Of a DNA stretch of 44,205 nt, positions 1 to 44,168 are shown one piece after another (positions within the stretch are counted from its first letter, which is position 1; each line of letters opens with the position of its first letter). The position numbers were made by a program, and so were the translations under genes. The notes beneath the pieces were generated by a model. That model did no database searches. It worked only from the letters and a program-made list of their open reading frames with translations, and had not been told where the DNA came from. The DNA comes from Escherichia phage vB_VIPECOTH07: the sequence record PQ417132.1. The stretch is one strand, 5' to 3'.

Positions 1-513
1 TTAACGTTCACCGGACACCACCTTAATTGTTACTTCACTGATTGGCTCGTCGCGTACTTCTTCGGCGACAACTGTTTTATTCAGCCCCAGCTTAGCGGCG
101 GCGAACGTAGCAGAGATACCGGCGGCCCCATTCTCAGTGAAATACGCCTCTTCCAGCGCCTGTGCCGTTTCATAGGCTTCTGCAAATGAGGGAATCTCGC
201 GCAGCCACAGCTTAATAATCGGGATAGTGACACCGATGTGTAAGGCGAAGCGAGCCAGTGATGGCGGTTTATCCGCAATGACTGCTTTGTAGTCTCCGTG
301 CGCACCGGTCGGCATAGCCTCCCACGACGTGCGGTCGAAGAAACGAATCAATTCGTCACAATAGTCCGGGTCCCACAACGCGGCGGAATTACGGGATGAT
401 TGATAAAGGCTCTGTTTACCGCGCGGTCGTTTACGGCGACGGTTTGCGCTAACAGCTTCTTCATGTGCAGCTTGCACCACCTCTGGTGATGGCTGCTTGA
501 GTTTCAGCTTCAT
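1..513 (-). CDS. terminase small subunit (putative)
   Basis: Start moved to ATG at 513 (SD AAGGGG 5 nt upstream). Motif ARFALHIGVTIPIIKLWLREIPSFAEAYETAQALEEAYFTENG resembles small-terminase families. Stop codon is exactly at window positions 1-3, just upstream (in transcription order, across the boundary) of the large terminase. Confidence 0.6.
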   Translation of the reverse strand: MKLKLKQPSPEVVQAAHEEAVSANRRRKRPRGKQSLYQSSRNSAALWDPDYCDELIRFFDRTSWEAMPTGAHGDYKAVIADKPPSLARFALHIGVTIPIIKLWLREIPSFAEAYETAQALEEAYFTENGAAGISATFAAAKLGLNKTVVAEEVRDEPISEVTIKVVSGER

Positions 514-732
514 AGAATCCCCTTGCATATGCGTCTGACCATCAGAGCGCACCAGACGCGCCCTACGCGTCTAAATGGATTATATAAGGGGATTGGGCGG
601 GATGTACAGAAAAGCCCTCGGTAGAGGGCTTGTATCAGTTGTATAGGCCGTGGCGTGGTGCTCTTTTACCGTCGCCGCCGTAATGGTCGTTAGCTACGGG
701 AATGGCCCGGGCGTTAGGGATGATTAGTAGTC

Positions 733-3150: not shown

Positions 3151-3636
3151 TCATTTAACAGCCCTCCCGATAGCCTCCGCCTCCTGCCACTGTTTACCGT
3201 CGAACAACGCCAGACGACCCGCAGTACGGCGACGCAGACCAAGTAACGGTTTACCATTCTGGTTGATGAACAGCGCCAGCTTAGTCCGCAGCGTCGTGAT
3301 ATCACCAGAACGCAGCGCCTTACCCGTGCCCGTAGTAGCAGCAATCACGCCAGCGCCCGCGTTATAGACCAGGTCGCAAACAGCATCAAACTGCGCCTGC
3401 GTCAGCGAATGGTGTGCAGCCGCGCCAACCGCAGCTACGGCTTTAGCCATATCACGGTTCAGTAACAGGAGGCCTTGCCCGGGGGTGATAGTCTGCCCCG
3501 CCTTAACATGCGGACCATAGCTTCCGTAGCCAATAGTCAGGTACTTCTCGTTCGGCGTAGCACGATACGCAGTTCCGCGGAATCCCTCAAATGCGGCGGT
3601 AAAATGCAATCCATTATCTGAAATGTTTCGAGACAC
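3151..3636 (-). CDS. endolysin, lysozyme (glycoside hydrolase family 24-like)
   Basis: FEGFRGTAYRATPNEKYLTIGYGSYGPH matches the phage lysozyme catalytic region. Start placed at GTG 3636 preceded by GGAGGA with 7-nt spacer (ORF track 3151..3687). No N-terminal hydrophobic segment. Confidence 0.8.
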   Translation of the reverse strand: MSRNISDNGLHFTAAFEGFRGTAYRATPNEKYLTIGYGSYGPHVKAGQTITPGQGLLLLNRDMAKAVAAVGAAAHHSLTQAQFDAVCDLVYNAGAGVIAATTGTGKALRSGDITTLRTKLALFINQNGKPLLGLRRRTAGRLALFDGKQWQEAEAIGRAVK

Positions 3637-3886
3637 GCTTATGTCCTCCGTATGACAGCCACGCCTGGCGAATCTGGCGCAGCGCAACTAATGTGATTAA
3701 TGTCTCTGGCAACGTGGGTGACATGCTGCCCTGTAACAGGTGGATACATCCAGCGGCGCAGACGATAGCAGTCAGGATATAAAGCACCCGACCAAATAAT
3801 CCGTCGTCCACACTGGGATGGTACACATTAAACAGCGATGTGCCTCCGATTGCCAGCATACCGCCGAACCAGAATAATTCATTCAT
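3614..3886 (-). CDS. small membrane protein in lysis cassette (second holin or antiholin candidate)
   Basis: ATG at 3886 within ATGAATGA overlap with holin stop; hydrophobic segments FWFGGMLAIGGTSLF and VLYILTAIVCAAGCIHLL. 3' end overlaps endolysin start by 23 nt. Confidence 0.5.
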   Translation of the reverse strand: MNELFWFGGMLAIGGTSLFNVYHPSVDDGLFGRVLYILTAIVCAAGCIHLLQGSMSPTLPETLITLVALRQIRQAWLSYGGHKRVSKHFR

Positions 3887-4187
3887 CTGGGCCTCCTCGA
3901 CGTGAGATGTATTCTCCGGCGACGATACCGGAGAGACGGGAATAAATAGGCATCCAGAGAATAGCAATAATGAAGCCCAACCCAGCGATTTCACGGTCGC
4001 CCGTGATACCGAACCATTGAGCTGCGAGAGGTGCGCCAAATACGGCGCAGGCGAAACCAGTAGCGATGAAGCAGAAGCCGTCGATAGGGCCAGAAATAGC
4101 GGACTTATGTTGTCGTAGTCCGATTACCCCTCCGGCTAGTGCGGCAGCGAGAAGCCACCCCGTCACTGTTTCAGTAAATTTATCCAA
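3879..4187 (-). CDS. holin (three predicted transmembrane segments)
   Basis: TTG start at 4187 preceded by GGAGGA 6 nt upstream; hydrophobic stretches TGWLLAAALAGGVIGL, FCFIATGFACAVFGAPLAAQWF, IAGLGFIIAILWMPIY; immediately upstream of endolysin. Confidence 0.65.
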   Translation of the reverse strand: MDKFTETVTGWLLAAALAGGVIGLRQHKSAISGPIDGFCFIATGFACAVFGAPLAAQWFGITGDREIAGLGFIIAILWMPIYSRLSGIVAGEYISRRGGPDE

Positions 4188-6876: not shown

Positions 6877-6910
6877 AACCATCACTCCTCTGTCTAGTTT
6901 CAATAAGTGA

Positions 6911-6939
6911 ATAGTAACCTATTATGTTGGGGTGTGCAA
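6911..6939 (-). promoter_or_regulatory. promoter TTGCAC-N17-TACTAT with dyad AATAG-N4-CTATT
   Basis: Minus-strand reading CTTGCACACCCCAACATAATAGGTTACTATTCACTTA; near-identical to copies at 5415..5443 and 30307..30335. Confidence 0.55.
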
Positions 6940-7322
6940 GAGATTCATTGAAAATGGTTACGTTGCCGTTGTGATTCTTCAGGTAGGGTTGTGCCTTTAT
7001 TCTTATTACTTGGTAACTAAAGGGCAGGCCCTAAGCCTGCCCAATAATCGTTACATTTTTACGGTTGCGAATCTACGGCACTTTAAGAAAATCAGATACT
7101 TAAGATATATTCCGCCGATGGGAATAGAGCTTGCCCAGGGCAACCGGAGATACTTAGGAAGGAAAGTTACGATAATTCGAATGTTCAGTAAACTGCCGCC
7201 TAACACTTCGCGTTGGGCGCTCGTTTTCGGCGGGTTTTACAAGGTGAACAGGAATCAAAGTAACTAAGATATAGAAGCACCTTAAACGAAGATTTTCTTA
7301 ATGTCAATAGGTGCGATTATGT

Positions 7323-32775: not shown

Positions 32776-32804
32776 AAAAGGCCCCTTTCGGGGCCTTAGT
32801 TTTA
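32776..32804. terminator. bidirectional rho-independent terminator
   Basis: AAGGCCCC-tttc-GGGGCCTT then TTTTA; terminates the plus-strand cassette and, on minus strand, the major tail gene whose stop overlaps the T-run. Confidence 0.7.
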
Positions 32805-37140: not shown

Positions 37141-37199
37141 AATTTACCTCTTAGTAAATGAAAAGAGGGACCGAAGTCCCTCTCGATTATATATTAACC

Positions 37200-38249
37200 T
37201 TAAGCCCCGACACCAGTTACCAGGAAGGCAATCGGTACATGCTTACGCTCAACCACACGGTTCCAGTTGGAGGCGTTCGCCAGGTCCTGCCAGGAAGCAG
37301 AGCGGGCGATAGTCTCAGTACCATTGCCGGTGATTACCGCGCTGGTGAAGCTGTAGCCCAGTGGGTGCAGCAACCAGGTCTTACGGGTCCACAGGGTTTC
37401 GACGCCACCACCGTTACCGCGAGACGCTTCGCGCTCGTATTCCAGCGGGTTGGACGGAGAACCTTCACCGTAACCGATAGCGCCGTTGCCGAAGATGATG
37501 GAGATGAACTTACGGCTGCCGCCAGTACCAACTACGGTCATGCTGTCGTCAACAATCACGCGGTATCCCTGGTAGGTGGCGAACAAGGTGTCGTTGTCGG
37601 CGTCTTTGATGAAGTCGATAAGCTGCTGCTTACGTGCCTGCGCATAAACGAAGCTGTGCATCGCGATAGCACCCAACACTTCACCGCCGTTACCCATCAG
37701 CGCATCACCCATAGTCTGGGTAGCGTCGATGAACGCACCTGCGTCGAAGCCCAGAGTAGCGGACACGTCGATAACCATGTCATTCTGCGTATGGTAGGCA
37801 TCGGTAGCGGCTACGTTGTCGTTGTACAGACCAAGCGCAGTAGCAATCAGACGGCGTTGTGCCTGACGCTGCCAGAAGTTATCCAGGCGAGAAGCTACGG
37901 ATTGCAGCGGGTTCTGGCTGGTAAGTTCTACAGTCAGGTCCGCCTGACCGAAACCCTCGTTCAGGTACGCCACGCGCGCCATCATCTCACCGGTCTGCAC
38001 ATTACGCGGAGTAGCGATGTCCTGGTATACGTCGTTCGAGTGGTTAGGCTCGATAGAAGTATCAATCGCTTTCCAGAAAGGAATATTAGCGATGTTGGAC
38101 GGGCCGCGGGCAATCTCGGCAGCGTATGGGGTCGGGGTCAGAATACCAGACTGGAAGAACGCGGTTTTTTCTACCGGGTCCTCGGTCATATAAGACGCCA
38201 GGACCGGGATGTTGCCAGTTACGATATCGCCGATAGTGGTAATTGCCAT
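37200..38249 (-). CDS. major capsid protein (putative)
   Basis: 349 aa, directly after scaffold gene, strong RBS GAGGAA 6 nt before ATG 38249. Confidence 0.7.
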   Translation of the reverse strand: MAITTIGDIVTGNIPVLASYMTEDPVEKTAFFQSGILTPTPYAAEIARGPSNIANIPFWKAIDTSIEPNHSNDVYQDIATPRNVQTGEMMARVAYLNEGFGQADLTVELTSQNPLQSVASRLDNFWQRQAQRRLIATALGLYNDNVAATDAYHTQNDMVIDVSATLGFDAGAFIDATQTMGDALMGNGGEVLGAIAMHSFVYAQARKQQLIDFIKDADNDTLFATYQGYRVIVDDSMTVVGTGGSRKFISIIFGNGAIGYGEGSPSNPLEYEREASRGNGGGVETLWTRKTWLLHPLGYSFTSAVITGNGTETIARSASWQDLANASNWNRVVERKHVPIAFLVTGVGA

Positions 38250-38251
38250 TA

Positions 38252-38956
38252 TTATTTCCTCAGGGCTTTAAGTTGCCGTTCAAATTCGGCAGGGTTCGAT
38301 TTATACAGAGCTAAACGCTCCGCTTCGCTCATGTCTTTAAACGCTGGTGCGGCCCCGCCGCCTTTGCTACCGGAAGCCCCGCCGCCGGAAGCTGCATTTG
38401 CTTTGATCAAATGCGAAAACGCTTTGTGTTCGCGCAGGTATTTGCGGAACTGTTCCGGGTCAGTCGTGATTACGTTGCCATCTGCACCGACAAACTTAGT
38501 AACCACGTCATCGCCTTCAAACTCAGTCTTAACGAACGGTGCGAGAATGTCTACTGCTTCCGGAGTAATAAAGTCACCCGCGAAAGAGCCTAACACCGCC
38601 TTGCGTTCGCTACCGAGGATGCGCTCAGCCATTTTGGTGATGCGACCATCTTTCTCAGCTAACACCGGGTCATACTGGCTACGAATCGTTTTTTCAAACT
38701 CGTCCATCTTACCGGCGGCTTTTAACGCCTCCTGGTGTGCGCGCTGCCGTTCTTCTTCGGCCTCTTTCGCTTTACGGGCGGCTTCTTTCTTCTCCGCAAG
38801 CAATGCTTCCTGATTGGCCTTAAGCCCGGCAACTTCTTTCTCAATCAGCGCCTGAACTTCTTCGGCTGTGAACATTTTCGGCGCGTCACCGCCACCTGCT
38901 GGTTTAAGGTCATCTGGTGCTTCGTCTTGAAGCGGATAACGTAAAAAACGATTCAT
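38252..38956 (-). CDS. scaffolding protein (putative)
   Basis: Charged coiled-coil composition (LAEKKEAARKAKEAEEERQRAHQEALKAAGK), immediately upstream of capsid gene. ATG at 38956 (track 39010, TTG). Confidence 0.55.
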   Translation of the reverse strand: MNRFLRYPLQDEAPDDLKPAGGGDAPKMFTAEEVQALIEKEVAGLKANQEALLAEKKEAARKAKEAEEERQRAHQEALKAAGKMDEFEKTIRSQYDPVLAEKDGRITKMAERILGSERKAVLGSFAGDFITPEAVDILAPFVKTEFEGDDVVTKFVGADGNVITTDPEQFRKYLREHKAFSHLIKANAASGGGASGSKGGGAAPAFKDMSEAERLALYKSNPAEFERQLKALRK

Positions 38957-39038
38957 AGTCAGTATGTCCCCTGGACGTTGGAACCCGGGCCACCCGGATT
39001 TACATGTCAAGAATAAATTATTCCAACATGCAAGGCAA

Positions 39039-39302
39039 CTATTCCAGAATATTCCTCACGTAATCCTGCAACATGAACACTTTCAGCCTCAGTTGCCGTA
39101 CGCATTCGGCGTTCTGAACGTCGATAGCCAAATCCTCGTCAGCGTCTCTACTTGGCGGTGCCAGTTTGCACGGCGGCTGCATCATCGTCGTATCCGGGGA
39201 TGGAATTGGCGTTTGCGACGGCGCGGGACTTGAGCTGCACGCGCTCAGGGTCAAAAGTGCACACGCTGCGACCAGGCGTTTTAATGTACTTAACGACTTC
39301 AC
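39039..39302 (-). CDS. o-spanin (Rz1-like outer-membrane lipoprotein)
   Basis: Signal peptide with lipobox LLTLSAC, Pro-rich mature part; GTG start with SD GAGGTGA; begins inside the Rz frame (+1) and extends past its stop. Confidence 0.7.
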   Translation of the reverse strand: MKSLSTLKRLVAACALLTLSACSSSPAPSQTPIPSPDTTMMQPPCKLAPPSRDADEDLAIDVQNAECVRQLRLKVFMLQDYVRNILE

Positions 39303-39534
39303 GGGTAATCACCTCTGATTTCGTCTTGCCTTCGTTGTCAGCGGCTGCGGCCTTCGATTCGTCCTGCTGCTGCCGTTGTGTTTTCTTCGCCAACTCAGCC
39401 TGTGCTTTCTGCTGTTGCTGCGAAACGATATTCGCCCGGCCTTCGTTCCAGCCGCTGCGGTACTGGTAGATGCCGTGTGCGTAAGCCAGGATGACGAAAC
39501 ATGCTCCTGCTACGACAGTTGCTTTAAGATTCAT
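39148..39534 (-). CDS. i-spanin (Rz-like)
   Basis: N-terminal TM KATVVAGACFVILAYAHGIY followed by charged coiled-coil region QQQKAQAELAKKTQRQQQDE; ATG 39534 with AAGGAG upstream. Confidence 0.7.
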   Translation of the reverse strand: MNLKATVVAGACFVILAYAHGIYQYRSGWNEGRANIVSQQQQKAQAELAKKTQRQQQDESKAAAADNEGKTKSEVITREVVKYIKTPGRSVCTFDPERVQLKSRAVANANSIPGYDDDAAAVQTGTAK

Positions 39535-39785
39535 GTTTCTCCTTTCTCGATAAGTAAAGCCCCGCTTTAAGGCGGGGCGCTAGTCCTTATCATTTAAACA
39601 TAGAAACGGCGTAATCTCAGTAAACCCGTTACTTTTTACACGAGCAATAGAGTATGGCCCTTCCGAACGCGTCAGCGTAACTACACTCATGACTTACGTC
39701 CCGCTCCGTTACCTGCCCGCGCCGCGGTCGCTTGTTCATACTTCACAAGCTCAGGTGGAGCTTAGCACATTTTTAGTGAAAAGTC

Positions 39786-39801
39786 AACTATTCGAATAGT
39801 T
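39786..39801. repeat. perfect 16-bp palindrome AACTATTCGAATAGTT
   Basis: Read directly; carries the same GAATAG / CTATTC half-sites as the promoter dyads but everted and with a 2-bp centre. Confidence 0.8.
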
Positions 39802-39851
39802 TATTCCTACATTTACAATTTGGTGGAATAACTGGAATAATCACAGGCATT

Positions 39852-39876
39852 AAAAAGCCCCTTTCGGGGCCTAAGT
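39852..39876 (-). terminator. rho-independent terminator
   Basis: GCCCC-tttc-GGGGC hairpin followed on minus strand by TTTTTAAT, directly after stop of gene 39877..40338. Confidence 0.65.
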
Positions 39877-40338
39877 TTATTCTGGCTTAGTGACCTTCGC
39901 CGCTTTGCTGACAGCCTCTACACCATCGGCATCAGTAACTTTAACGAAGTATTCCCCAACAGAATTAACCGTCAGAGACAAAGCCTCTTCCGGGGCGTTA
40001 ACCACTTCCTTCCCGTCTTTGTACCAGGTCAGCGCATATGGTGCTTTGCCCGCCTTAACTTCGACAGCGATATTTGCGCTGCCGTCTGCCAGTTCAGCGT
40101 CCTGCGGTTGTACGGAGAAATACACATCACCAGCATCCGCCAGGTACTGAATCTCATAAAGCATGCCCGCCGCCGGTAGCGCAATACCGGTTTTATCTGC
40201 AAACGGCATATCGTCTACGGGCGCGCCCAGTACACTTTCATCTTCAATAAATACCACGTTCTCGCCGGAGCCAGGCACACGGGCGTACTGGACTACGCGA
40301 CGCGACGGTACATCAGTTACTTTGAAAAAGCCCATCAT
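39877..40338 (-). CDS. structural protein with C-terminal Ig-like domain
   Basis: C-terminus YALTWYKDGKEVVNAPEEALSLTVNSVGEYFVKVTDADG has the Ig-like pattern; ATG overlaps stop of head morphogenesis gene. Confidence 0.45.
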   Translation of the reverse strand: MMGFFKVTDVPSRRVVQYARVPGSGENVVFIEDESVLGAPVDDMPFADKTGIALPAAGMLYEIQYLADAGDVYFSVQPQDAELADGSANIAVEVKAGKAPYALTWYKDGKEVVNAPEEALSLTVNSVGEYFVKVTDADGVEAVSKAAKVTKPE

Positions 40339-41414
40339 TATTCCCCTTTCAGATAATCAGCAACACGTTTATCGAGTTCCGCCATCTGCTTAAGCGTGAG
40401 CGGATTCCCGAAACCATCTACAGATATTACGCGAAACTCTTCCGGCGATATACCGCTGTTACGGAAAATCTTACCCCGCACCGGGCCTAGAGCCTGGTCC
40501 TGAAACCATGCCGGTTGTTGTTTCAGGAACTCGTAGTAAGTGGTGTCTGCGCTTACCTGAGTACCTCCGTCCGCACCCTTAGCCGCGCGTTTTGCGCCTT
40601 TATCCAGGAAGTCGAACTCCGAACTGATTACCGGAGCCGTGCACGACCGGCAGTTCGGATGGGCGGGGGGCATCGGCCCTTTACCGATTTCCCACGTCAT
40701 CCCATCTCTGGCCTTGCAAACGGCTGAGGTCCTAGAATCAAGAGTAGACACCCACTCATATTTCTCGATAATGTCGTCGTTCTGGCGGTACGTCTCATTA
40801 CGGGCTTCGTTGGACACGTGGGACAGCGCGGTGCGGATTACTGTAGCAGCGTGTTTCTCTGATACGTCAGCCAGGCCGCCTTTACCAACTACTTCTTTAA
40901 CAATCTGCCGTGTGGTTTGGCCTTGCACAAAGCCCATCTTAACGCCAGTTACAAGGCGCGCGACCTCCGCTTCACCCCAGCCTGACATCAGCTTGGTGAA
41001 GTCAACGGGCTTGTCGCTCAACGATAAGGGTTGAAACTCAGCAGCAGCCCATACCTGCTCAGCGGTAGGTGTAACAAATTCCGCGTCTACATTGGCGGTC
41101 AGTGTCTTTGCGTTCCACTCAGCCTCATACGCCGCCAGTTCCTTAAGGTCTTCTGTCAGCTTTGTTTGCCAGTCACCCGTAATACCCGCCAGTGCGTCTT
41201 CGAGGTCGCGTAACAATTTATTCAGTCGCGCGGTGCTTCGCCCGTCGTCACCAAATAACAGCACCTGCCGTTTGATTTCGTCACGCATTTCCTTGATGAA
41301 CGGTGCGAGGTCTTTCACTTCACCGGCTGCGGCGCGTTGCAGCCATATCTGATGGCTGATTAGAGATGTAAGTAAGCTCATAGATAAACCCTGTGGCGCT
41401 AAAGTTAATAGCAT
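40338..41414 (-). CDS. head morphogenesis protein (SPP1 gp7 / Mu F-like)
   Basis: PAHPNCRSC resembles the conserved HPNCRC signature of the Mu F family; sits right after portal. Alternative ATG at 41381. Confidence 0.6.
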   Translation of the reverse strand: MLLTLAPQGLSMSLLTSLISHQIWLQRAAAGEVKDLAPFIKEMRDEIKRQVLLFGDDGRSTARLNKLLRDLEDALAGITGDWQTKLTEDLKELAAYEAEWNAKTLTANVDAEFVTPTAEQVWAAAEFQPLSLSDKPVDFTKLMSGWGEAEVARLVTGVKMGFVQGQTTRQIVKEVVGKGGLADVSEKHAATVIRTALSHVSNEARNETYRQNDDIIEKYEWVSTLDSRTSAVCKARDGMTWEIGKGPMPPAHPNCRSCTAPVISSEFDFLDKGAKRAAKGADGGTQVSADTTYYEFLKQQPAWFQDQALGPVRGKIFRNSGISPEEFRVISVDGFGNPLTLKQMAELDKRVADYLKGE

Positions 41415-41420
41415 ACTATA

Positions 41421-41448
41421 AGAAAGCCCCTTTCGGGGCTATAGATGA
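41421..41448 (-). terminator. hairpin terminator / attenuator
   Basis: AGCCCC-tttc-GGGGCT followed on minus strand by TTCTTAT; between portal and head morphogenesis genes. Confidence 0.4.
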
Positions 41449-42944: not shown

Positions 42945-44168
42945 TTAAAGTGCGAAAGTCACCGGGACGTTAATAACTGGTTTGCGAATCGGCATTTCAT
43001 ACGCGATAGGGTATGTGGTTCCATCATTCTGGTGGTCAACACCACCTGATTTATCCGGTTCGCCGTTCTTGTCGTAGGCTTGCTGCTCCAGGCATCGAGC
43101 AGTAACCGGGCAAGCCTGTTCGTTAATCATGACCATACCAGATTCAAGCGCCTTATTCATCGCAGATACGCGGTCTTTAACCGGTGGGTTTGTCGATTTA
43201 GCGCGTACTTCGAAACCGGCCTGCTGTAGCTGGGCGATGTCGGAGGTGCTGGCGTTGTTGCTTTTACGGTTCTTGCCGCTGGCGTCCGGGTACATAACGA
43301 TATAATGGCCCTTACTTTTCCAGCGCTCCGTTATGGCTCGCACTACATCCGGCGTATCGAACATATCAACCAACTCGGCGACAGCGTGCCACACCTTTCC
43401 GCGTTGCACGTAGACTGTGCTCGCCATATGGCCTACGTTAAAATCCTGCCCAATATACAGAGTCTCACCAGGCTTGATTGTTTCGCGACTGCTGTTTTTC
43501 CTGCGGTCGTAAGCGTAGTAGACCGTCCCAGCCGTGAGGTTTACGAACTCGCCGTTGATGTAGGCATCAATCAACTGCCCGGGGTAGGTATCTCGTAAGG
43601 ACTGCACATAATCTTCTGGCAGGAACGGGTTAGACAGGGTGGACGCCTGAATCATCTCGTAACCAGGATTCTTTTTAACAACCCAGCGGTCATGCACGAA
43701 ACGGAATCCTTCCGGCGTAGTGAACACGGAAACGGTATTAGCAGGTTTTGGCGTAATAGGTTTATACGTCCTCGGCAACTGACGGTTACGGGCGATGACT
43801 TTGTTCCATGCGTGCTCCGCGTGTTCCATGTTCAGGGTATCCAACTCGTCGATTTTTGCACGAAATGACTCGTAACCAACGATTCGTGCTGGATTATCTA
43901 ATGTACGCAGGACAAAATCCCCAAATTGACCGGATGACGTATAGATTATGTTGTCGGACTTATTGTATTTGTACCGGATACCCCAGTCCGTCAGCTTCTC
44001 TTCCATACGGGGCGCAAGGATAAGGCGTACCAGGTCATAAGTAGGCTCATACATGGCGATGATAGAATCGCTGCCACCCTCCATGCTGTCCAGTAGCGCG
44101 GAGTTACACATAACCTCTGATTTCCCGGTGCCGAAGCCAGCCACGAACGCAGGGAACTTGCAATGCAT
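42945..44168 (-). CDS. terminase large subunit (N-terminus may extend past window end)
   Basis: Walker A FVAGFGTGKS near N-terminus; nuclease-domain acidic motifs (YIGQDFN, VMYPDASG). Reading frame stays open upstream of ATG 44168 to the window edge. Confidence 0.85.
   Translation of the reverse strand: MHCKFPAFVAGFGTGKSEVMCNSALLDSMEGGSDSIIAMYEPTYDLVRLILAPRMEEKLTDWGIRYKYNKSDNIIYTSSGQFGDFVLRTLDNPARIVGYESFRAKIDELDTLNMEHAEHAWNKVIARNRQLPRTYKPITPKPANTVSVFTTPEGFRFVHDRWVVKKNPGYEMIQASTLSNPFLPEDYVQSLRDTYPGQLIDAYINGEFVNLTAGTVYYAYDRRKNSSRETIKPGETLYIGQDFNVGHMASTVYVQRGKVWHAVAELVDMFDTPDVVRAITERWKSKGHYIVMYPDASGKNRKSNNASTSDIAQLQQAGFEVRAKSTNPPVKDRVSAMNKALESGMVMINEQACPVTARCLEQQAYDKNGEPDKSGGVDHQNDGTTYPIAYEMPIRKPVINVPVTFAL

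Follow-up and report, generated by a model that had tools for sequence, protein, structure and literature searches.

A probable two-component spanin of the Jersey family and its putative transcription unit in a Kagunavirus genome

A 'Jersey' family of overlapped spanins has been described by Kongari et al. 2018 (PMC6139136), including those of phages Jersey, SETP3, K1G, K1H and K1ind1-3. The Jersey spanins overlap by 155 bp (PMC6139136), and the same paper describes a variant with minimal overlap ('separated'), FSL_SP-031. The location of the spanin genes apart from the holin and endolysin genes is stated for phages Schulenberg (PMC6763661) and fBC-Eco01 (PMC9825357). In Jerseyvirus SeF1 (PMC9409062), for which the same PHROGs are reported as those found here, the separation is evident from the gene numbers. 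The classical precedent of unlinked spanin genes is T4 (PMC6139136, Fig. 8 legend).

The DNA analyzed here is a stretch of 44,205 nt from Escherichia phage vB_VIPECOTH07 (PQ417132.1; to be referred to as the window). A pair of genes on its minus strand (39039..39534) very probably encodes a Kagunavirus two-component spanin of the Jersey overlapped family and heads a late transcription unit. The pair and its gene order are already known and are not unusual in this group of phages. With the family catalogued and the order known, the spanin finding itself adds nothing new. The one possibly new item here may be the promoter and the structured leader RNA that precede the two genes.

Genome setting and neighboring genes

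On the evidence of its ends, the window contains the entire genome of a Kagunavirus (Guernseyvirinae), in circularly permuted form. It has ~95-96% identity to phages JSSK01, ST20 and K1ind1. When the last 400 and the first 400 bases of the window were joined and compared with phages, the end-to-start junction was found to be contiguous in phage XY1 (100% identity) and in JSSK01 (99.9%). The junction crosses the small and large terminase subunit genes, and this region is split in the window (1..552 and 42945..44168, minus strand). The contiguity in XY1 and JSSK01 indicates that the window is the whole genome, linearized inside the terminase region. No tRNA or tmRNA genes were found in it by ARAGORN.

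A search by megablast with a 1-kb spanin region as the query matched 234 phage records. The top records are from Escherichia phages JSSK01 (96.5%), ST20, K1ind1-3, K1G and Sciku, all of them Kagunavirus. At blastn sensitivity, the spanin region matched 494 records, mostly from Salmonella Jersey-type phages. The nucleotide identity of the spanin region to K1ind1, K1G and Sciku is ~95%.

The motif TGAATAGTAnCCTATTAT is found seven times in the window (at 2856, 5412, 6908, 10345, 10389, 13368 and 30321), with 0.07 occurrences expected by chance. The fBC-Eco01 paper (PMC9825357) calls this motif a 'phage RNA polymerase promoter'. As the annotation of the collinear phage Sciku is complete and includes no RNA polymerase gene, the motif is more likely to be an operator or a promoter element for the host polymerase.

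Two holin/antiholin genes and the endolysin gene are located at 3151..4187 (minus strand), as recognized from Pfam, PHROG and Sciku, with their exact starts uncertain. The endolysin matches Pfam Phage_lysozyme (3.4e-25) as well as endolysin PHROGs, and the holins match phrog_2359 and phrog_2508. The initial annotation of this DNA had the spanin genes unlinked to the holin and endolysin cassette, which holds, and at a distance of ~35 kb from it, which does not. This distance is an artifact of the linearization inside the terminase genes. Followed along the direction of transcription, on the same strand, the endolysin stop and the i-spanin start are separated by 3150 + 4671 nt, or ~7.8 kb. Distances read off linearized, circularly permuted phage genomes can mislead.

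As judged from the collinear Sciku genome, the interval between the endolysin and the spanins is occupied by small genes, the terminases, the portal, a morphogenesis gene of the SPP1 gp7 type, and a Hoc-like gene with an Ig domain. This Hoc-like decoration gene (39877..40338, minus strand; phrog_3945, 5e-84) is directly upstream of the spanins, and the next gene beyond it is the head morphogenesis gene of the SPP1 gp7 type (40338..41414). The next gene downstream of the spanins encodes the scaffolding protein (38252..38956, minus strand; phrog_206, 2.6e-55), with its ATG at 38956 as in Sciku. The spanins had been placed between the head morphogenesis and the scaffold genes; this is correct on the scaffold side, while on the upstream side it is the Hoc-like gene that adjoins them.

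The longest ORF of the scaffold gene opens at a TTG at position 39010 (38252..39010, minus strand). The shorter product, of 234 amino acids, is favored by the conserved ribosome-binding site (RBS), by the ATG at 38956, and by the annotation in Sciku.

Genes of the i-spanin and of the o-spanin

The i-spanin gene (39148..39534, minus strand; 387 nt, ATG start, 128 amino acids) was recognized as an ORF with a PHROG match, to phrog_2536 (Rz-like spanin) over its full length (6e-57). The protein has a hydrophobic stretch at residues ~3-24 (maximum Kyte-Doolittle mean over 17 residues, 1.92). In the single-sequence AlphaFold2 model there is one helix, covering residues 3-63 (pLDDT 73-87). The confidence of this model is low past residue 65, and the C-terminal half has pLDDT below 50. 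Hydropathy and the predicted helix both point to a single N-terminal transmembrane domain (type II topology), as had been read from the sequence in the initial annotation. The segment of residues 36-75 consists to 65% of Q/A/E/K, and is predicted to be helical to residue 63 only. The periplasmic residue Cys92 is present in 45 of 45 distinct homologue sequences. The Shine-Dalgarno sequence AAGGAG is located at 39539..39544 (minus strand), and the AAAGG of this element is invariant in an alignment of 40 leaders.

The o-spanin gene (39039..39302, minus strand; 264 nt, GTG start, 87 amino acids) is in the +1 frame relative to the i-spanin gene. It was also recognized as an ORF with PHROG matches, to phrog_5672 (5e-29) and phrog_1267 (2e-20). 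Both phrog_2536 and phrog_5672 are among the PHROGs reported for SeF1 (PMC9409062). The N-terminus of the o-spanin, MKSLSTLKRLVAACALLTLSA-CSSS, has a basic n-region, a 12-residue h-region, and the lipobox L-S-A-C, with Cys22 as the lipobox cysteine. The residue at position +2 is Ser, with no Asp, consistent with sorting to the outer membrane. Moreover, nine of the first 30 residues of the mature protein are Pro. The LSAC lipobox and the Pro-rich character that had been noted earlier are therefore both confirmed.

These features are maintained among the homologues. Each of the 42 distinct o-spanin homologues has its lipobox Cys at residue 22 or 23, and the lipobox variants LSAC, LASC, LSGC, LNGC and LTSC are found among them. 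Cys45 and Cys67 are likewise present in 42 of 42. Periplasmic cysteines for homotypic disulfides are thus found in both proteins, Cys92 in the i-spanin and Cys45 and Cys67 in the o-spanin. The length of the o-spanin ORF is 87 codons in 49 of 49 loci, and the start codon is GTG in 44 and ATG in 5 of these. A Shine-Dalgarno-like GAGGTG (39310..39315, minus strand) is positioned 7 nt before the o-spanin GTG, within the i-spanin frame. Its GAGG is kept in the commonest listed 16-mers upstream of the o-spanin start from the 49 loci, and an RBS is annotated at the equivalent place in Sciku.

Neither of the two spanin proteins matched Pfam (E <= 0.01), including the lambda-type Rz and Rz1 models, and as a result the function is assigned from the architecture and the PHROG annotation. 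This absence of a Pfam Rz/Rz1 match, together with the location of the pair between the head decoration and scaffold genes, could be taken to suggest membrane proteins with a role other than lysis, for example in superinfection exclusion or in head assembly at the membrane. Such a role is highly improbable, however, since all the architectural hallmarks of two-component spanins are present and conserved. In addition, the genome encodes holins and an endolysin but no other annotated spanin candidate, and phages that infect Gram-negative hosts cannot do without a disruptor of the outer membrane. The T4 spanins are also unlinked from the holin and endolysin (PMC6139136).

The o-spanin starts 232 nt into the i-spanin ORF, which places it in the +1 frame. 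As in the overlapped class of two-component spanins, the genes adjoin each other. Their overlap is 155 nt, the same as the published Jersey figure, and the o-spanin extends 109 nt beyond the i-spanin stop. The GTG start, the +1 frame, the 109-nt overhang, and the description of the pair as overlapped rather than embedded were all given in the initial annotation, and its coordinates and arithmetic are correct. The 155/109 geometry recurs in almost all of the related loci. The GenBank record of K1ind1 gives the homologous pair as 'putative spanin' and marks it 'overlapping gene', and that of Sciku gives it as i-spanin and o-spanin, of 387 and 264 nt.

Two GenBank phages and 48 related viral contigs supplied the 46 distinct copies of the region with which selection on the two frames was examined. 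In the 109-nt stretch that belongs to the o-spanin only, the diversity at the first, second and third codon positions of the o-frame is 0.094, 0.039 and 0.270, respectively, among the 46 distinct sequences. The o-spanin frame is therefore under purifying selection. In the overlap, variation is concentrated at the third position of the i-frame (0.238), which indicates that the i-spanin dominates the constraint there.

These results also bear on whether the +1-frame ORF is a chance open frame, with the i-spanin alone being real. Its GTG start and its location inside another gene would fit with such an explanation, as would the fact that gene callers often omit the o-spanin and that several GenBank records annotate one spanin only. 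On the other hand, the third-position bias in the 109-nt o-only part is strong, all 87 codons are open in each of the 49 loci, the lipobox Cys is invariant, as are Cys45 and Cys67, and the o-spanin PHROGs are matched at 5e-29 and 2e-20. A chance open frame is effectively refuted already by these observations. Reading the sequence by itself can recover overlapped o-spanins, which are often missed by gene callers.

A mosaic pair is found in one related locus (L038, 2001..2589), with an i-spanin of 118 amino acids and an o-spanin of 81 amino acids that overlap by only 14 nt. The o-spanin of this locus looks unrelated and has the lipobox ITGC, and the C-terminal LQDYVRNILE is retained. The pair corresponds to the FSL_SP-031 variant.

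A mechanism for the pair can be proposed from the work on lambda Rz/Rz1 and T4 PseT.3/PseT.2 that is summarized in PMC6139136. The N-terminal helix of the i-spanin would be anchored in the inner membrane, with the helical domain reaching into the periplasm. The o-spanin, probably translated from its own GAGGTG-N7-GTG start within the i-spanin frame, would undergo export and lipidation at the lipobox Cys, with the Ser at +2 directing it to the inner leaflet of the outer membrane. The periplasmic parts of the two proteins would bind each other and form a bridge through the peptidoglycan mesh. Disulfide-linked homodimers, through Cys92 of the i-spanin and Cys45 and Cys67 of the o-spanin, may stabilize this complex. 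Once the holin and the endolysin have destroyed the peptidoglycan, the freed complexes would fuse or disrupt the outer membrane, completing lysis.

Transcription unit and structured leader

An intrinsic terminator (39852..39871, minus strand) is located behind the Hoc-like gene, with the sequence GCCCC-GAAA-GGGGC followed by five T. It has a folding energy of -12.7 kcal/mol (z = -2.9), and it is an annotated terminator in Sciku. A second hairpin (39559..39578, minus strand) has a GC-only stem of 7 bp followed by UUUACUUAU, and forms a terminator-like end of the leader before the i-spanin RBS. Its folding energy is -16.1 kcal/mol, it passes the terminator scanner, and its stem covaries in the relatives (CG to GC, AU and UA). 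In Jersey-type relatives the stem is kept by compensatory changes, but it is followed by UUAGCGUAU. The initial annotation had proposed that a terminator and a hairpin before the i-spanin start flank this region, and both structures exist. The second hairpin could stop much of the transcription ahead of the spanins.

The hairpin core GCCCC-GAAA-GGGGC is found at three sites in the window, after different genes (39857..39870, 41423..41439 and 32776..32802, minus strand). The copy at 32776..32802 has a longer stem (GGCCCC...GGGGCC). Two of the sites look like terminators (-12.7 and -16.8 kcal/mol). At 41423..41439, the hairpin (-12.3 kcal/mol) is followed by UUUCUUAU.

A candidate sigma70-like promoter (39759..39787, minus strand) was recognized from the sequence behind the upstream terminator. 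It consists of the -35 element TTGACT (39787..39782), a spacer of 17 nt, and the extended -10 element TGcTAAGCT. The -10 hexamer, TAAGCT (39764..39759), has the consensus base at 3 of 6 positions, which explains why a generic promoter scanner made no call at this site. The layout of the promoter is common to the Kaguna-type loci and the paralogous copies described below, and the Jersey-type loci have TAGACT-17-TGtTACGCT. A perfect palindrome of 16 bp, AACTATTCGAATAGTT (39786..39801, minus strand), detected as a blastn self-match, overlaps the first bases of the -35 element. It is operator-like and is conserved in related loci.

The weak -10 hexamer and the silence of the consensus scanner would be consistent with spanin genes that have no promoter of their own and are expressed by read-through from the head-gene operon, with 39535..39876 being a processing or stability element, or a small RNA gene. 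The terminator-like hairpin at the end of the leader would fit as well, as for a stand-alone RNA of ~195 nt. This alternative is unlikely, as a good intrinsic terminator with five T stands between the Hoc-like gene and 39535..39876. Moreover, the -35/extended -10 layout is kept even in the diverged Jersey-type loci, and the identical promoter sequence is found before the paralogous copies elsewhere in the genomes of the relatives. Transcription of the spanins from their own promoter, located at the start of the leader, is preferred here.

On the downstream side, the o-spanin and scaffold genes are separated by a gap of 82 nt. A hairpin in this gap (CCGGG-TGG-CCCGG; z = -1.0) has no U tract, and no terminator was found between the o-spanin and the scaffold gene. 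A promoter in this interval was considered and rejected, as the TTGACA at 39008..39003 is not accompanied by an acceptable -10 element. The next terminator-like site (37163..37184, minus strand), identified by the scanner, is past the major capsid gene, and Sciku has a terminator at the homologous place. We infer that this site ends a spanin-scaffold-capsid unit. With no terminator before the scaffold gene and the next one past the capsid gene, the spanins are most likely co-transcribed with both.

A conserved promoter-like element is located behind the upstream terminator, so that the spanins are plausibly expressed independently of the head genes upstream and of the holin and endolysin genes. 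The proposal of independent expression in the initial annotation can therefore be retained with respect to the upstream head genes, the holins and the endolysin, given the terminator and the promoter, but not with respect to the scaffold and capsid genes, from which no terminator separates the spanins. The order of the late unit, as read from the sequence, would be a sigma70-like promoter, a structured leader of ~195 nt, the spanins, the scaffold, the major capsid protein, and the terminator. The supply of spanins would be tied to the synthesis of head proteins and not to the holin/endolysin operon ~7.8 kb upstream. Such an uncoupling would be harmless, because spanins should be inert until the peptidoglycan is removed.

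The spanin pair is flanked by GGAATAA/TTATTCC motifs (39801..39840 and 39013..39029, minus strand), with 4 of the 11 GGAATAA sites of the genome. The 12-mer ATGTTGGAATAA is located right behind the o-spanin stop, and a copy with one mismatch is located just upstream of the leader promoter. Each copy has the near-palindrome GGAATAA-NN-TATTC beside TTGAC. These clusters of ATGTTGGAATAA and GGAATAA may serve a phage regulator as an operator, or may mark a recombination seam.

The leader is ~195 nt long, from a putative start at ~39752 to the i-spanin RBS. Its 5' domain (39645..39756, minus strand) is formed by a short hairpin (P1) and a long three-part hairpin (P2/P3), followed by an invariant UUCGGAAGGGCC. 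Among Kaguna-type loci, the leader has a mean identity to the window of 95.6%, compared to ~93% for the spanin genes and 84.7% for the 5' part of the scaffold gene. The conservation of the leader is at least as high as that of the neighboring coding sequence.

A covariance model (R1) was built from P1, P2 and the apical hairpin P3, and all matches were aligned to it. The model gives 133 bits at 39645..39756. Compared to structures slid by 1-3 columns, the proposed structure has 94.1% of the cells paired (29-41% for the slid controls), 13 pairs changed on both sides (1-5), and a covariation score of 0.225 (at most 0.042), these figures being somewhat inflated since the alignment was fitted to the model. 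At least four differently compensated versions of the P3 stem are found in the raw sequences. Taken by itself, the minimum free energy fold of the complete leader does not reach significance (z = -1.44), and the support for the structure therefore comes from the covariation. Nothing meaningful was found in Rfam, either for the whole window at gathering thresholds or for 39500..39900 at E <= 10.

Two ORFs in the leader, of 36 amino acids each (39580..39690 and 39629..39739, minus strand), were rejected as genes and are probably spurious. Sciku and other records list the ORF at 39629..39739 as a hypothetical protein. The window alone has the ATG at 39690, and the other frame is broken by 1-nt indels in four of the related loci (L002, L018, L027 and L006). 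The variation in the leader follows base-pairing and not reading frames. A search of viral contigs with the gapped pattern ACCGCGG-N40-65-TTCGGAAGG was unspecific, most of the 120 loci being chance matches, and nhmmer kept only Guernseyvirinae contigs among them.

Some Kagunavirus relatives have a second, paralogous copy of the promoter and 5' domain, with a different 3' part (L051, which is Sciku, and L061, L103, L107, L113, L121, L124 and L147). The second copy in Sciku (37534..37646) heads an operon with two holins and the endolysin. A second copy was searched for in the window and not found, the only copy there being the one that precedes the spanins. The homologous place in the window (7305..6900, minus strand) has a similar promoter, TTGACA-17-TAAGGT, with a different leader and a hairpin at 7042..7022.

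One function that could be considered for the RNA at 39645..39756 is that of a cis-acting element in the control of transcription, outside Rfam, such as a put-like processive antiterminator or an attenuator, a reading that we regard as quite unlikely. If it acted as an antiterminator, polymerases from the leader promoter would read through the hairpin at 39559..39578 and through terminators further on. In Sciku-like relatives, the leader element would then co-regulate two physically separate halves of the lysis system. Control of elongation by the leader would make it a rare protein-independent regulatory RNA in this group of virulent siphophages, which are in wide use in work on phage therapy.

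Comparison with described systems

The put RNAs of HK022 (PMC9378689) resemble the leader in having two stem-loops and in being cis-encoded, directly downstream of a sigma70 promoter. In both cases a genome has up to two copies, each heading an operon with terminator-like hairpins. The structured domain of the leader is larger, ~95 nt compared to ~70 nt for put, and the window has only one copy. The likeness is one of architecture only.

The late region of phage lambda has the order pR', 6S RNA, tR', lysis genes and head genes. In layout only, this order resembles the Kaguna arrangement of a promoter, a leader of ~190 nt, a hairpin, the spanins and the head genes.

At the level of the proteins, the pair is similar to lambda Rz/Rz1. 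Both systems combine a type II inner-membrane protein, helical in its periplasmic domain, with a small and Pro-rich lipoprotein of the outer membrane, encoded in the +1 frame of the same DNA, and both have periplasmic cysteines. However, Rz1 of lambda is fully embedded in Rz, and the two genes are located beside S and R. In comparison, the o-spanin here has an overhang of 109 nt, and the holin and endolysin genes are 7.8 kb away. T4 PseT.3/PseT.2 is similar in that the o-spanin has two periplasmic cysteines. On the other hand, the T4 genes are separated and not overlapped, a periplasmic Cys is lacking in the T4 i-spanin, and the sequences are unrelated to those of the window pair.

The closest similarity is with the Jersey family, which has the same features as the pair in the window: proteins of 128 and 87 amino acids, an overlap of 155 nt, the +1 frame, and a position ahead of the scaffold gene. 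The difference is in the lipobox of the o-spanin, which is LSAC (Cys22) here, and LASC (Cys23), LNGC or LSGC in many of the relatives.
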